In this document: one piece after another, positions 28,285 to 40,303 of the stretch
Layout of the letters: each line of letters starts with the position of its first letter
Numbering within the stretch: position 1 is the stretch's first letter
Sequence record: PX930851.1
Direction: 5' to 3' (one strand)
Length of the DNA: 64,000 nt
Source: a phage
Position numbers and translations under genes: made by a program
Notes under the pieces: model-generated
The model's database searches: none
What the model saw: the letters and a program-made list of their open reading frames with translations, nothing else
Told to the model about the DNA's origin: nothing

Positions 28285-28563
28285 TTATTCTTTAAATCTA
28301 ATCAATTTATTCATAGACTTTGAAACTTCTGCACGAACCTCATGTAAGTTTTTAAGCTGTTCAAGACGCTGCTCATAGTAAGCAATTTCATCTTCTTCGA
28401 GACAGTCCTGTGAATCTTCTTTAAGATAACGTGCATAGTCCTGAAAAGCTTTACGGACTACTTCCTGGAAGTCATCAAGACTTTGAATTTTCTTAGGAGC
28501 GGCAGATACACGACGAGGTGCAGTATAATACTCATAACCAAACCCTGCACTTAATTGAGCCAT
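28285..28563 (-). CDS. hypothetical protein, ~92 aa (vs.3 position)
   Basis: start moved to ATG 28563 to remove overlap. Confidence 0.45.
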
Positions 28564-28865
28564 TAGTATTTTTCCTCTGGTTGGAACACTGCACGACAAG
28601 CCCACATACTGGCTTCTTTGAGTTTCGTTTTAGCAATAGTTAACTGATCGAGGCTTTCAGCATAATTCTTCGCGAATTCACAGTCTTCACAATTATCTAG
28701 TGCTTCCCAGAATTCATCGTATAAAGCGTCAAAGATAAGTCCCAAACGAACTTCAGCGTCTTTGATAGCATTCACTTTACCGATTTTCTCTTCAGTATGC
28801 GGCTTATAACCCTTAATATCTTCAATCATATTTAACTTCCTCACCAGTACATAAATCGTATTCAA
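28563..28865 (-). CDS. vs.4-position protein; candidate Acb2-type cyclic-oligonucleotide sponge (anti-CBASS)
   Basis: ~90-100 aa ORF at the second position after regB, where T4 Vs.4 (reported as Acb2) lies; no diagnostic motif checked. Confidence 0.45.
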
Positions 28866-29043
28866 CTAAACGAATAGGTTCATGAATGCCATATCCCTGA
28901 ACAGAAATTTCTGTCGTAGGATAAATTCCATCAATATCACCCATATTCCAGGCTTCATTAAATTGCTGTTCGCCTGAATTACTAAACCACTCGGCGAAAG
29001 CATTTAGTACATCTTTAGAACCTTCAATAATTATCTTTGCCAT
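28822..29043 (-). CDS. hypothetical protein, 73 aa
   Basis: ORF track. Confidence 0.45.
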   Translation of the reverse strand: MAKIIIEGSKDVLNAFAEWFSNSGEQQFNEAWNMGDIDGIYPTTEISVQGYGIHEPIRLVEYDLCTGEEVKYD

Positions 29044-29405
29044 TATAAGCTCTCAGTAAAGGTACGAGCGATAACGTCGCGCTGCTGTTCCGGAGTCAGA
29101 GAGTTAAAGCGAACTGCATAACCGGATACACGGATGGTCAGCTGCGGATATTTTTCCGGATGCTTAACTGCATCTTCCAGAGTTTCACGACGCAGAACGT
29201 TAACGTTCAGGTGTTGACCACCTTCAATTTTAACTGTAGGTTGTGTTTCAATTTCAATTTCACGGGCATGCAAACCGTAGAAAATTTCCGGGTCTACAAA
29301 AGAGTCCTCTTTAAAGGTTTTAGAGACAATAATTCGTGCTTGAATACCATCTTCAAAATAAATAGTACCTTTATGTGTGCCTTCAAGAATTTGATATGCT
29401 TTCAT
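29043..29405 (-). CDS. autonomous glycyl radical cofactor (GrcA/YfiD-like)
   Basis: C-terminal ~60 aa [60 protein letters not shown] matches E. coli GrcA as recalled, including RVSGY glycyl radical motif. Confidence 0.85.
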
Positions 29406-29412
29406 ATAAACC

Positions 29413-29742
29413 TCAATTAGAAAATAAATTTATCCAAGATTGTTCTTTAATTAAAAATGGCTCAGAATCATATGCCATTAAACTTTGGGTGATTAGTCCT
29501 TTAAAAGGTCCATCAATAAATTCCATGGTAAAATATGGAATTTTATTCATTAGCCGTGCATTAGGAGCAGTACATAAAACTCTGCATCCTTTGAATACAC
29601 CCTTTTGTAATTTGTATTGCTTGGGATAAAATTCGCTCAAAATGTTATTATTTGCTAAAATTTCAAAATGATTCACCAATTTATTTTTAATAGTTTTTGG
29701 CGAAAAATAGAGATATTCGAAAAGCTGTGTGTCTGTCATCAT
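29413..29742 (-). CDS. hypothetical protein, 109 aa
   Basis: ORF track. Confidence 0.5.
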
Positions 29743-30281
29743 TGCATTCCAATAACAAAAAATTGAGGACGAACTGTTTCACCTGTTTCAGCATTATAGC
29801 TTCGACAACAGTGTTGTACCGTTTTAATATGGATATTGTAAATCTTATCCATATCAGGAGCTTTAATAGGTTCGTCAATTATGTACAAGATACGAGAAAG
29901 CGATAACCCACGGAATTTATGACCTTCATTACCGATAAAACTACGGACAGAATCAGTAAATAAACGAAAACGTATATCATCATTAGAATAACGCGAAAAT
30001 TCCTTTTTAATGTTATTTGCAGAAATTTTAGCGTAAGCTGAAGTATTAGAAAGAACAATAACTGTTCCGCCATCATACAGCCAATTAGCAGCAAAGTTAG
30101 TCACAGCAATTGATTTACCGGATTGACGTCCACCATCTATACGAAGTGTGCAGTACTGTTTGAGCACATCTTCCATTGGTGGAAGATAATCATTCTTACA
30201 AAGTTCTTCTACTCTAGCATCAGAATGGTGTGTAAAAGCATTCATCAGGGATAGATAAGGACCAGTTAAAAATGTTCTCAT
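29739..30281 (-). CDS. P-loop NTPase-like protein, ~180 aa
   Basis: Walker A GGRQSGKS and Walker B-like ILYIIDEP; start moved to ATG 30281 (AGAGAG RBS); track N-terminal extension lacks RBS. Confidence 0.5.
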   Translation of the reverse strand: MRTFLTGPYLSLMNAFTHHSDARVEELCKNDYLPPMEDVLKQYCTLRIDGGRQSGKSIAVTNFAANWLYDGGTVIVLSNTSAYAKISANNIKKEFSRYSNDDIRFRLFTDSVRSFIGNEGHKFRGLSLSRILYIIDEPIKAPDMDKIYNIHIKTVQHCCRSYNAETGETVRPQFFVIGMQ

Positions 30282-30422
30282 TTTATTCTCTCTAAGTTTG
30301 GGCCATTCCGTGGCGCATGAATTGTCCATTTCTGTATTTACCCATTACCGCACTTGGGCTCGACCTTATCACAGGTTGGCGGGAATCCCTCATAGAATCA
30401 TGAGGTCCAGGTTGTTCCCATA

Positions 30423-30896
30423 TTATTTGAACGATTTAACGTACTGAATAGAACCTTTACTATTCACAAAGGCAATTTTACCATTTTTATTATACATGGT
30501 AGCAGTACGCTGATAACCATAGGTTTGTTTACCAGATTGATAACCAACTAATGCAAAATTATCTTCACCCATTTTATTCTGTTTAGCGCGAATGCGTTCA
30601 TGACCATGTGCCATAAGAACCTTAGCATCACCAGTTGCAATGGATCGACGAGTTTTTTCATCTTCAACTGCATTAACAAAGTCGTCAAATGAATCAAATT
30701 TAGCATGAGATTTATTATACAATTTTCCATCTACTGCATAATTATATCCCTGTACATCCATCTCAACTTCTGTACCATCATCCAATACAGCAGTAATTTT
30801 TTGACCTTTTTTAAATTTCAAAAGATCAGTAAAAGATTCAGCAATAATTTGAGAATTAATAGCTGCTTCAGTGATAAATTCTTGATATGTTTTCAT
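30423..30896 (-). CDS. internal-protein-like capsid-packaged protein, 157 aa
   Basis: N-terminus MKTYQEFITE matches T4 internal-protein capsid-targeting sequence, with I-x-E prohead protease site. Confidence 0.6.
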   Translation of the reverse strand: MKTYQEFITEAAINSQIIAESFTDLLKFKKGQKITAVLDDGTEVEMDVQGYNYAVDGKLYNKSHAKFDSFDDFVNAVEDEKTRRSIATGDAKVLMAHGHERIRAKQNKMGEDNFALVGYQSGKQTYGYQRTATMYNKNGKIAFVNSKGSIQYVKSFK

Positions 30897-30905
30897 GGGT
30901 TTCCT

Positions 30906-38878: not shown

Positions 38879-39268
38879 TTACCCTTCATCAACAATAGTA
38901 TGAGTGTGGGCATTTACGATTTGCCACCAGTCAAAGCGATTAGAACCATACATTGGTTTGTTCTCATTTTCTTTGATAATGTCACGGAGTTCATCTTCGG
39001 TAGCGGCTTTCGCGATTAAATCAGCATATCCACCGCGAGGATAATAATTATCACCTGCAAAAAGTAAAAAGTTTGGTTTAATATTATTAAACTCTTCAAG
39101 AGTAATAACTTTTCCTGTCGGTTGAACAATCTCTACATATTTATATCCTAATTTTTGAGCAGCATCTACTGCTTCAAGCAGGGTATCATGAGCCCATCCA
39201 ATTTGGCAATCTGGCTTTTCAGATGGATTAGCCTGATAATCCGCGTACACTTTATACATTCTATTCAC
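38879..39268 (-). CDS. hypothetical protein, 129 aa
   Basis: ORF track. Confidence 0.55.
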   Translation of the reverse strand: MNRMYKVYADYQANPSEKPDCQIGWAHDTLLEAVDAAQKLGYKYVEIVQPTGKVITLEEFNNIKPNFLLFAGDNYYPRGGYADLIAKAATEDELRDIIKENENKPMYGSNRFDWWQIVNAHTHTIVDEG

Positions 39269-39446
39269 CTTTAGAAATTTTATCCATAACGATAGCGATT
39301 AAACCAATTAAAAATGCTACTACAAGCGAAAACACATTTTCTGCTGTAGTTAATAATCCGCATATAAATCCAACAAACATTGAAAAACTAAAAGCAGAAG
39401 CAGAAATTGCAATAGCAACATTTCGAATTAATTCACAGCGTTTCAT
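39261..39446 (-). CDS. small membrane protein, 61 aa
   Basis: start moved to ATG 39446 (GAGGAG RBS) below early promoter; one TM helix. Confidence 0.45.
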   Translation of the reverse strand: MKRCELIRNVAIAISASAFSFSMFVGFICGLLTTAENVFSLVVAFLIGLIAIVMDKISKGE

Positions 39447-39474
39447 TTTATTCTCCTCAGTAGTTGATAGGGTA

Positions 39475-39504
39475 ATAGTATCACAACTAAAACCCCGTGT
39501 AAAC
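39475..39504 (-). promoter_or_regulatory. phage early promoter
   Basis: -35 GTTTAC, 18-nt spacer, TTGTGATACTAT. Confidence 0.6.
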
Positions 39505-39516
39505 AACTTTGTGAAA

Positions 39517-39774
39517 TTATTTTAAATCTTCTAATCGTTTCTTCATCTTAGAACCATTTTTAGCGATTTCTCCTGCGTCAGAGCATAATGCTAAAAGTGC
39601 TTTAACTTTAGTTTGGTCTCCTTTAAAAGACGAAGGATCGACTGCAGCAGCAAGTTCTTTAATACGAGAGAAAAGACGCTCAGCTTCAGCTAAAGCCATT
39701 CCAAGCTTTACTTCCATACCATGAGAAGATTCAGTGATAATAGTTTCTGTAGCAAACTCTTTATAAGTTTTCAT
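39517..39774 (-). CDS. internal-protein-like capsid-packaged protein, 85 aa (ipI-like position)
   Basis: N-terminus MKTYKEFATETIITE; early promoter 39806-39835. Confidence 0.6.
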   Translation of the reverse strand: MKTYKEFATETIITESSHGMEVKLGMALAEAERLFSRIKELAAAVDPSSFKGDQTKVKALLALCSDAGEIAKNGSKMKKRLEDLK

Positions 39775-39805
39775 TTTATTTTTCCTAATTAATTTTGATG
39801 AGGTA

Positions 39806-39835
39806 ATAGTATCACTACCTCATCAGTGTGTAAAC
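39806..39835 (-). promoter_or_regulatory. phage early promoter upstream of IP-like gene
   Basis: -35 GTTTAC, 18-nt spacer, GTGATACTAT; spacer contains inverted repeat GATGAGGTA/TACCTCATC. Confidence 0.55.
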
Positions 39836-39847
39836 AACTTTGTGAAA

Positions 39848-40303
39848 TTATTTTAAATCGTCTGCCCAATCAAGCTTAAGAGGTTCTTTGTATTCACGAT
39901 CTAATACGACCGGAATTTGTACATCACCGCTAAATGATAAGGGCCCAACATTATAAGACAATGTTATATGCGGTGTGTAATCGTCAAAATCATGTGTAGC
40001 ACCTAGCGCCCGCGCATACATGTGTCGACAGCGCAGATATTCAGAATCTAGTACAAGTACAAGAGTAGATCCATCTTGTGTTTTCCATACTTCTAAATGT
40101 CCAGAAGAAGCTACTTCAAAACTTCCGCTTGATGGAACATACGGAACATTTACTCTTGAATAACATATAGTCGAATGAATTTTTTCTCTAGGAACTGGAT
40201 TAGGAACACGTAAAGAGCGCTGAAGTTCTTCCAGCGCATCAAGTGTTAATTCTGAAAACTTAGCTGCTACATAAAGACCCGTTGAAAAGTCTTTAAATTC
40301 CAT
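39848..40303 (-). CDS. 57B: 2H-phosphoesterase-family protein at the 57B position (Acb1-type anti-CBASS nuclease candidate)
   Basis: 151 aa; two H-x-T/S motifs (HSTICYS, HITLSY); directly upstream of 57A and gene 1. Confidence 0.7.

Follow-up and report, generated by a model that had tools for sequence, protein, structure and literature searches.

T4-type acb1 (57B) and acb2 (vs.4) genes assigned at their canonical positions in a window of a T4-like phage genome

Introduction

Do the genes occupying the 57B and vs.4 positions of a T4-like phage encode the two characterised anti-CBASS proteins of T4, namely Acb1 and Acb2, and do a macro-domain protein and a Nudix protein of the same phage act together with them? 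Both points had been raised in an earlier note on this DNA, in which the Acb2 assignment rested on synteny only. The window considered here is the whole stretch of 64,000 nucleotides from phage record PX930851.1. Most database records for the two genes read 'hypothetical protein' or 'RNA ligase', and the main value of the present analysis lies in their correct annotation. The presence of T4-type acb1 and acb2 in a T4-like phage is in itself ordinary, textbook biology that is already known.

Results

The window derives from a T4-like coliphage (Tequatrovirus) whose nearest relatives are Sa45lw, Sf23, RB51 and wV7, and its gene order regB, vs.3, vs.4, vs.5 ... Ip5, 57B, 57A, 1 is that of the annotated RB51, Sa45lw and T4 records. 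We regard it as almost certain that the window comes from a Tequatrovirus genome and carries, each in its canonical place, both of the anti-CBASS genes characterised in T4. The two genes lie on the minus strand and are only bracketed by the span 28563-40303 (11.7 kb), being separated by some 30 genes unrelated to them and by 10 tRNAs. They are near-core in T4-like phages, with 1232 and 1471 phage records for vs.4 and 57B respectively.

The 57B gene (acb1; 39848-40303, minus strand) encodes a 2H phosphoesterase of 151 residues, all of which are identical to those of T4 gp57B (151/151, 100%). The Pfam Acb1 model PF23474 matched the protein over profile positions 1-144 of 144 with a score of 202.7 bits (E = 2.6e-60), against a cutoff of 27 bits that was also applied to PF24729 and PF13563. 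Matches were also returned for the FBB1 Acb1 structures (PDB 7T26/7T27, E = 4.1e-62), with the 7T26 alignment reaching query residue 148 of 151, and for phrog_755 (E = 5e-68). The two H-x-T/S motifs pointed out in the earlier note are present as H43-S44-T45 and H112-I113-T114 in window numbering (T4 numbering: H44/T46 and H113/T115). With the tetrad definition and residue list taken from PMC9117128, all four residues of the HxT/HxT catalytic tetrad (H44/T46/H113/T115) were found to be kept, as were the nucleobase-stacking residues Y12, W74, F107 and W147, the adenine-specific E141 (T4 numbering) and the C-terminal lid. At the DNA level the gene differs from that of T4 at 11 of 456 nucleotides, all synonymous, and its ATG start overlaps the stop codon of 57A (TAATG). 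The window reads ATA ATG where T4 has ATG ATG, the first of the two annotated Met codons being absent, and this loss very probably has no consequence, given that the FBB1 Acb1 construct used for crystallisation started only at G8 (PMC9117128).

The vs.4 gene (acb2; 28563-28829, minus strand) lies two genes beyond regB (27764-28225), next after vs.3, and encodes a helical hairpin of 88 residues from an ATG start. The earlier note had placed in this slot an ORF of about 95 residues spanning 28563-28865; the position proved correct and the length did not. That interval is the longest mechanical ORF, of 100 residues from a TTG, and was rejected as the coding sequence since both T4 Vs.4 and the crystallised construct, which comprises residues 1-88 (PMC10097602), start at the ATG. 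The TTG extension would overlap vs.5 by 44 nt, which counts against it. The ATG at 28829 falls within the final codons of vs.5, and a GAGG precedes it by 9 nt.

The assignment of vs.4 no longer depends on synteny, as the encoded protein is identical to T4 Vs.4 at 88 of 88 residues (100%) and to chain A of PDB 7UQ2 (100%, E = 1.7e-57), the T4 hexamer solved with cGAMP bound. It matched the Pfam model PF24729 (Acb2_Tad1_hairpin) over residues 7-83 with 71.4 bits (E = 7.1e-20), and phrog_717, the PHROG by which Jenson et al. defined Vs.4 homologues (PMC10097602), with E = 2.3e-32. A profile built from nine Vs.4 alleles and run against the PDB also reached the Acb2 of Pseudomonas phage PaMx33 (8H2J/8IXZ, E = 1e-3). 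Using the residue list of PMC10097602, we found Y8, H11, T12, K23, L29, F33, A66, A73, S74, A77, R79 and F82 all present in the window protein. The residues of the cyclic-dinucleotide pocket (Y8, H11, K23, S74, R79 and F82) are invariant in the nine alleles, which come from several genera, and the hexamer-interface residues L29, A66, A73 and A77 are invariant in the same alignment. The gene differs from T4 vs.4 at 9 of 267 nucleotides, all synonymous, so that 20 of the 20 nucleotide differences from T4 in the two genes together are silent. The sequences of both genes show purifying selection. The profile searches proposed in the earlier note as a check thus recovered both similarities, and at the sequence level chance similarity can be excluded for 57B as well as for vs.4.

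Other identities for the two proteins were weighed against these data. The 57B product might be a LigT-like 2'-5' RNA ligase or cyclic phosphodiesterase serving RNA or tRNA repair and not an immune-signal nuclease, as it shares membership of the 2H superfamily and the two HxT/S motifs with these enzymes, it carries the name 'RNA ligase' in T4 RefSeq and in phrog_755, and it gives a weak match to Pfam 2_5_RNA_ligase2 (E = 0.11). However, the LigT model (PF13563) scored 13 bits in a partial alignment, below the cutoff and far from the score of the Acb1 model, and T4 Acb1 is reported to cleave cyclic oligonucleotides without ligating RNA or acting as a CPDase on RNA ends. Moreover, the identical T4 protein is the sole cGAMP-degrading activity in T4-infected lysates and is needed only under CBASS, where T4 Δacb1 shows a >300-fold defect, while H44A/H113A Acb1 is inactive (PMC9117128). 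A role in RNA repair in place of signal cleavage is accordingly extremely improbable. Only marginally more credible, and still very improbable, is the possibility that Vs.4 is a Tad1-like sponge directed mainly at non-CBASS signals such as the Thoeris signal gcADPR. In favour of this idea, Acb2 and Tad1 have PF24729 in common, and published work shows that a sponge can have more than one specificity. Tad1 proteins are longer and combine the hairpin domain with one or more additional domains, whereas the 88 residues of the window protein, matched from 7 to 83, form the hairpin domain only. The allele-profile search of the PDB found Vs.4 and PaMx33 Acb2 and no Tad1, and for the identical T4 protein the measured ligand is 3'3'-cGAMP and the knockout phenotype is CBASS-specific. 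The reading of 57B as Acb1 and of vs.4 as Acb2 is therefore preferred, and the sequence contains no feature that counts against it.

Within vs.4 a hypervariable central cassette was observed at 28638-28745 (minus strand), corresponding to about codons 33-68 and lying between conserved terminal segments. In the protein alignment of the nine alleles, hardly any variation is seen in residues 1-32 and 70-88, while residues 33-69 are variable and contain indels. The window carries the T4-type allele of the cassette and RB51 itself a different one, with a DNA identity between window and RB51 of 38-57% in the cassette and 97-100% in the flanks. It is conceivable, although we hold it to be somewhat unlikely, that the cassette is an arms-race module swapped by recombination among otherwise near-identical T4-like genomes while the terminal segments that bind cGAMP remain invariant, that it could retune a second (cyclic-trinucleotide) pocket or aid escape from sponge-detecting systems such as Panoptes, and that the window phage gained a T4-type, non-cA3-binding cassette on an RB51/Sf23-like backbone. 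This structure offers an only slightly new angle, and it might account for ligand-spectrum differences between T4-like phages.

The surroundings of the two genes were scanned for expression signals and further domains. Promoter and terminator scans around vs.4 and 57B gave counts no higher than in shuffled sequence and no evidence for dedicated promoters, and an Rfam scan of 28000-41000 returned tRNAs only, with no regulatory RNA near either gene. Both genes look polycistronic, with overlapping stop and start codons. Because promoter-like sites were no commoner than in shuffled sequence, we infer their expression from this layout and from the overlapping codons only. A Pfam scan of 20 neighbouring ORFs detected only SLT (vs.1), glycyl-radical (vs.6), DUF7412 (Ip4), GP57 (57A) and Macro (Tk.4) domains, and nothing suggestive of further signal-degrading or signal-binding functions beyond the Macro match.

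Finally, we investigated the macro and Nudix proteins, which the earlier note had counted among the nucleotide-signal countermeasures of this phage. The domains themselves were verified: tk.4 (26395-26874, minus strand, outside 28563-40303) matched Pfam Macro (PF01661, E = 3.1e-8), and nudE (31914-32369, minus strand) matched Pfam NUDIX (E = 6.9e-13) and encodes a protein 95% identical to T4 NudE. Nothing was found that ties either protein to the destruction of immune signals. The presence of both domains, and the proposal from comparative genomics that viral macro and NADAR domains may act on soluble ADPr derivatives produced by host defence systems (PMC9503650), speak for a coordinated set with Acb1 and Acb2. 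On the other hand, the four genes are scattered over 14 kb among unrelated genes and form no operon. Tk.4 matched phrog_335, labelled 'phosphatase', and its two top PDB matches (2afc and 2fg1) are uncharacterised proteins; none of its named PDB matches, which include ADP-ribose 1''-phosphate phosphatases and TARG1-like (OARD1/C6orf130) macrodomains, the latter de-ADP-ribosylases, is annotated for cyclic nucleotides. For NudE, the T4 record lists FAD, ApnA, ADP-ribose and NADH as substrates, and no functional study of Tk.4 or of a T4 macrodomain turned up in a literature search. A coordinated set of four countermeasures is thus decidedly unlikely.

Discussion

The evidence offered by the window itself lies in sequence identity, the conservation of residues, synteny and purifying selection. 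The biochemistry and the phenotypes of Acb1 and Acb2 are carried over from published work on the T4 proteins, which are identical in sequence, and by this analogy we infer that 57B and vs.4 would be expressed and would act in the window phage as they do in T4.

According to this analogy, Acb1 would be a metal-independent 2H phosphoesterase that cuts 3'-5' bonds in the cyclic di- and trinucleotides of CBASS. Aromatic residues of the enzyme would clamp a cyclic di- or trinucleotide with one or more adenosines, and the scissile phosphate would be set over the H44/T46/H113/T115 tetrad, so as to be cut 3' of adenosine via a 2',3'-cyclic phosphate intermediate. The 88-residue helical hairpin of Acb2 would assemble into a hexamer acting as a sponge for 3'3'-cGAMP and other cyclic dinucleotides. 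Three cyclic dinucleotides would be held at the dimer interfaces, with Y8 and F82 stacking and H11, K23 and R79 making polar contacts, and their capture would raise the signal threshold for effector activation. In T4, the Vs.4 hexamer binds three ligands, with a Kd of ~30 nM for 3'3'-cGAMP, the protein inhibits the activation of CapV, and the knockout is ~50-fold down on Cap2-mutant CBASS (PMC10097602). The T4 allele of Acb2 shows no binding of cA3 (PMC10312549), so that nuclease and sponge would complement each other. Acb2 can also be a liability to the phage; the T4 protein is both required and sufficient for triggering Panoptes, a decoy-nucleotide system (PMC12657218). Naming acb1 and acb2 is useful for choosing or engineering T4-like phages, for instance for therapy against CBASS-bearing Enterobacteriaceae, and it also helps to predict whether a phage will be sensitive to systems that sense sponges, such as Panoptes.

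Among the known systems, the closest to the window 57B is T4 Acb1 (gp57B, NP_049750.1; Hobbs et al. 2022, PMC9117128), which shares the protein, the tetrad and the base-stacking residues and is likewise located directly downstream of 57A and overlaps it; the two differ in the one additional N-terminal Met of the T4 annotation and in the 11 synonymous nucleotides. The Acb1 of Erwinia phage FBB1 (7T26/7T27) is a full-length homologue with the same fold-defining motifs and serves as the structural template for the mechanism, but it comes from another phage genus and is about 70% identical to the window protein, with about 30% of the residues differing.

For vs.4, T4 Vs.4/Acb2 (NP_049728.1, PDB 7UQ2; Jenson et al. 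2023, PMC10097602) is the identical 88-residue protein with the same ligand and hexamer residues, likewise encoded between vs.3 and vs.5, while the window gene differs by its 9 synonymous nucleotides and its RB51/Sf23-like genome backbone. PaMx33 Acb2 (8H2J, 8H2X, 8IXZ; Huiting et al. 2023; Cao et al., PMC10312549) is a further member of this family and aligns with the Vs.4 allele profile from end to end, the ligand-binding Tyr and Lys being in register (Y11/K26 in PaMx33, Y8/K23 in the window), although it is only 24.2% identical to T4-Acb2, that is, to the window protein (PMC10312549). The PaMx33-type subgroup is distinguished by a second pocket with Arg at R67, Thr at T74 and a kinked helix, and the window protein falls outside it. 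In PaMx33 this pocket (R67, T74) binds cA3 and cAAG, whereas in the T4-type allele, where R67 corresponds to D61 and T74 to T68, it is narrower and binds no cA3, Y37, A57, L60, D61 and T64 being proposed to clash with this ligand (PMC10312549).

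Gene Content and Relatives of the Region

Every ORF between 26.8 and 41.9 kb lies on the - strand, and the GC content of this region is 32-38% everywhere except in the tRNA cluster. Comparison with the annotated records of RB51, Sa45lw and T4 showed that the T4 gene order is reproduced through vs, vs.1, regB, vs.3-vs.8, denV, e, nudE and e.2-e.8, continuing with the tRNA cluster, tRNA.2-4, an internal protein, 57B, 57A, 1 and 3. A megablast search with 27700-41400 matched 1195 phage records, the top one being Escherichia phage Sa45lw (97.9% identity, 100% coverage), with JY01, Shigella phage Sf23, wV7 and RB51 among the other best matches, all belonging to Tequatrovirus. 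The earlier note had drawn an 11.7-kb anti-CBASS span here; both genes are inside it, but the span merely brackets two independent small genes.

Identification of Acb1 and Acb2

The 57B slot is occupied by a 151-aa ORF (39848-40303, - strand), proposed to be Acb1, the enzyme cutting CBASS cyclic-nucleotide signals, from two 2H motifs that were indeed found as HST (residues 43-45) and HIT (residues 112-114). The protein matched PF23474 (Pfam Acb1) with E=2.6e-60 and 202.7 bits (cutoff 27), the entire model being covered, while a PDB sequence search returned Erwinia phage FBB1 Acb1 (7T26/7T27, E=4.1e-62) and a second, distant Acb1 (9Q2G). Its sequence is identical to that of T4 gp57B at 151/151 residues, and the 11 nucleotide differences between the two genes are all synonymous. 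The functional residues identified by Hobbs et al. (PMC9117128) are all present, namely, in T4 numbering, catalytic H44, T46, H113 and T115, stacking Y12, W74, F107 and W147, and adenine-specific E141. A generic 2'-5' RNA ligase identity was also considered and rejected, as the corresponding Pfam model reached only 13 bits.

The 57B start ATG shares bases with the 57A stop (TAATG). The 57A/57B junction (40298-40312) reads GAA TAATG in the window and ATGATG in T4, the 57A stop codon being TAA in the former and TGA in the latter, so that the window lacks the first of the two annotated T4 Met codons. T4 gp57B is therefore annotated with one more N-terminal Met (ATG ATG in T4, ATA ATG in the window).

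Acb2, the sponge binding the same signals, had been placed at 28563-28865 on synteny only. This interval corresponds to the longest ORF that mechanical calling gives (100 aa, TTG start); the gene is present, but the TTG-extended interval is wrong by 36 nt at the start. The real vs.4 start is the ATG at 28829 (- strand, 88 aa), annotated as such in both T4 and Sa45lw; the crystal construct of Jenson et al. (residues 1-88; PMC10097602) begins with the same residue. This ATG sits inside the final vs.5 codons (…AAA TATG ATT GA…), with GAGG 9 nt upstream.

The assignment itself was borne out by sequence, beyond synteny, by Pfam, PHROG, PDB, BLASTP, residue and profile matches. The protein matched PF24729 (Pfam Acb2/Tad1 hairpin, E=7.1e-20) and phrog_717 (E=2.3e-32), from which Jenson et al. 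gathered Vs.4 homologues (PMC10097602). A PDB search matched T4 Vs.4 chain 7UQ2 with all residues identical (E=1.7e-57), BLASTP against the T4 CDS gave 88/88 identity, and none of the nine nucleotides at which the gene differs from T4 alters an amino acid. Ligand residues Y8, H11, K23, S74, R79 and F82, hexamer residues L29, A66, A73 and A77 and helix-cap residue T12 are all present. Furthermore, a nine-allele vs.4 profile aligned end to end with Acb2 of Pseudomonas phage PaMx33 (8H2J, 8IXZ; E=1e-3), the source of the founding Acb2, with the ligand Tyr and Lys in register.

Mosaic Structure and Distribution

The vs.4 gene is a mosaic with a central cassette of about 110 bp (28638-28745, - strand, codons ~33-68), for which the stretch compared was L001:1364-1645. 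Window and RB51 DNA are 97-100% identical on either side and 38-57% identical across ~28745-28638. A nine-allele protein alignment covers Tequatrovirus, Dhakavirus, Slopekvirus, Pseudotevenvirus and Phapecoctavirus, together with phages of Klebsiella and Erwinia for which no genus is recorded. In it, residues 1-32 and 70-88 hardly vary, and 33-69 are hypervariable with indels. Y37, A57, L60, D61 and T64, proposed by Cao et al. to block cA3 binding in T4-Acb2 (PMC10312549), all fall in the variable part.

By tblastn, Vs.4 occurs in 1232 phage records (122 at ≥99% identity) and Acb1 in 1471 (499 at ≥99%). Vs.4 identities are bimodal, with 487 records at ≥90%, only 3 at 80-90% and 742 below 80%, a distribution that fits discrete allele classes. 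Both genes were found in Escherichia, Klebsiella, Shigella, Enterobacter and Yersinia phages, and Acb1 additionally in Acinetobacter, Vibrio and Aeromonas phages, usually labelled 'hypothetical protein' or 'RNA ligase'. Acb1 and Acb2 together are near-core equipment of T4-like phages.

Macro and Nudix Proteins

Tk.4 (26395-26874), outside the proposed span, is a stand-alone Macro domain (E=3.1e-8) labelled 'phosphatase' in databases. Its two best PDB matches are uncharacterised proteins; ADP-ribose-1''-phosphate phosphatases and macrodomains of the TARG1 type (OARD1/C6orf130) figure among the named ones. Our literature search found no functional study of Tk.4, which could reverse ADP-ribosylation or process ADPr-derived metabolites in T4-like infection. 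NudE (31914-32369) is 95% identical to T4 NudE, whose record lists FAD, ApnA, ADP-ribose and NADH as substrates. Both domains suggested as further countermeasures are present. The tk.4, nudE and anti-CBASS genes are scattered, with no operon, and a role of Tk.4 or NudE against immune signals remains speculation, the literature search having found no study tying either protein to such signals.

Comparison with T4

Unlike T4, the phage carries neither ipII nor ipIII in the denV-e interval (30906-31876). Ip4 (30423-30896; DUF7412, phrog_3155) lies between vs.8 and denV, immediately downstream of denV in the transcription direction (lower coordinates), while Ip5 (39517-39774; phrog_3499) fills the ipI slot; the phage is therefore without IPI. 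In T4, IPI* inhibits the GmrSD restriction system. Ip4 and Ip5 both begin MKTY(Q/K)EF, resembling a capsid-targeting sequence. A 157-aa ORF (35920-36393; phrog_2280, no Pfam match), to which nothing corresponds at this place in T4, starts in a similar way with MKSYTQFLNEA, which is reminiscent of the targeting motif of internal proteins. It is flanked by 36-nt direct repeats (35880-35915 and 36439-36474, 92% identical) which on the - strand resemble GC-stem/T-run terminator hairpins, suggesting a cassette inserted between duplicated terminators. The tRNA cluster (37152-37983, - strand) holds 10 uninterrupted genes (Arg, Asn, Tyr, Met/Ile-CAU, Thr, Ser, Pro, Gly, Leu, Gln), whereas the 8 tRNAs of T4 are split by the homing endonuclease gene segB, truncated in RB51 and absent here. 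Between tRNA-Gln and tRNA.2, an extra 171-aa ORF (38070-38585; phrog_2290, no Pfam match) is shared with Sa45lw, and both T4 and RB51 lack it at that site.

Since the Acb1 and Acb2 sequences are identical to those of T4, the properties reported for the T4 proteins transfer directly, and both would be expected to share their activities and phenotypes; expression of the two genes in this phage is the sole step that we infer. T4 Δacb1 wholly loses cGAMP-degrading activity and drops >300-fold when CBASS is active, growing normally in its absence (PMC9117128). The Vs.4 hexamer holds three ligands (Kd ~30 nM for 3'3'-cGAMP) and blocks CapV activation, and a Vs.4 knockout shows a ~50-fold reduction on Cap2-defective CBASS (PMC10097602). 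PaMx33 Acb2 binds cA3, T4-Acb2 does not, and the authors attribute broad coverage in T4 to Acb1 and Acb2 together (PMC10312549). T4 Acb2 also triggers the Panoptes decoy-nucleotide defence (PMC12657218). The observation is confirmed and the anti-CBASS interpretation supported and strengthened, its biology being already known from T4 itself.
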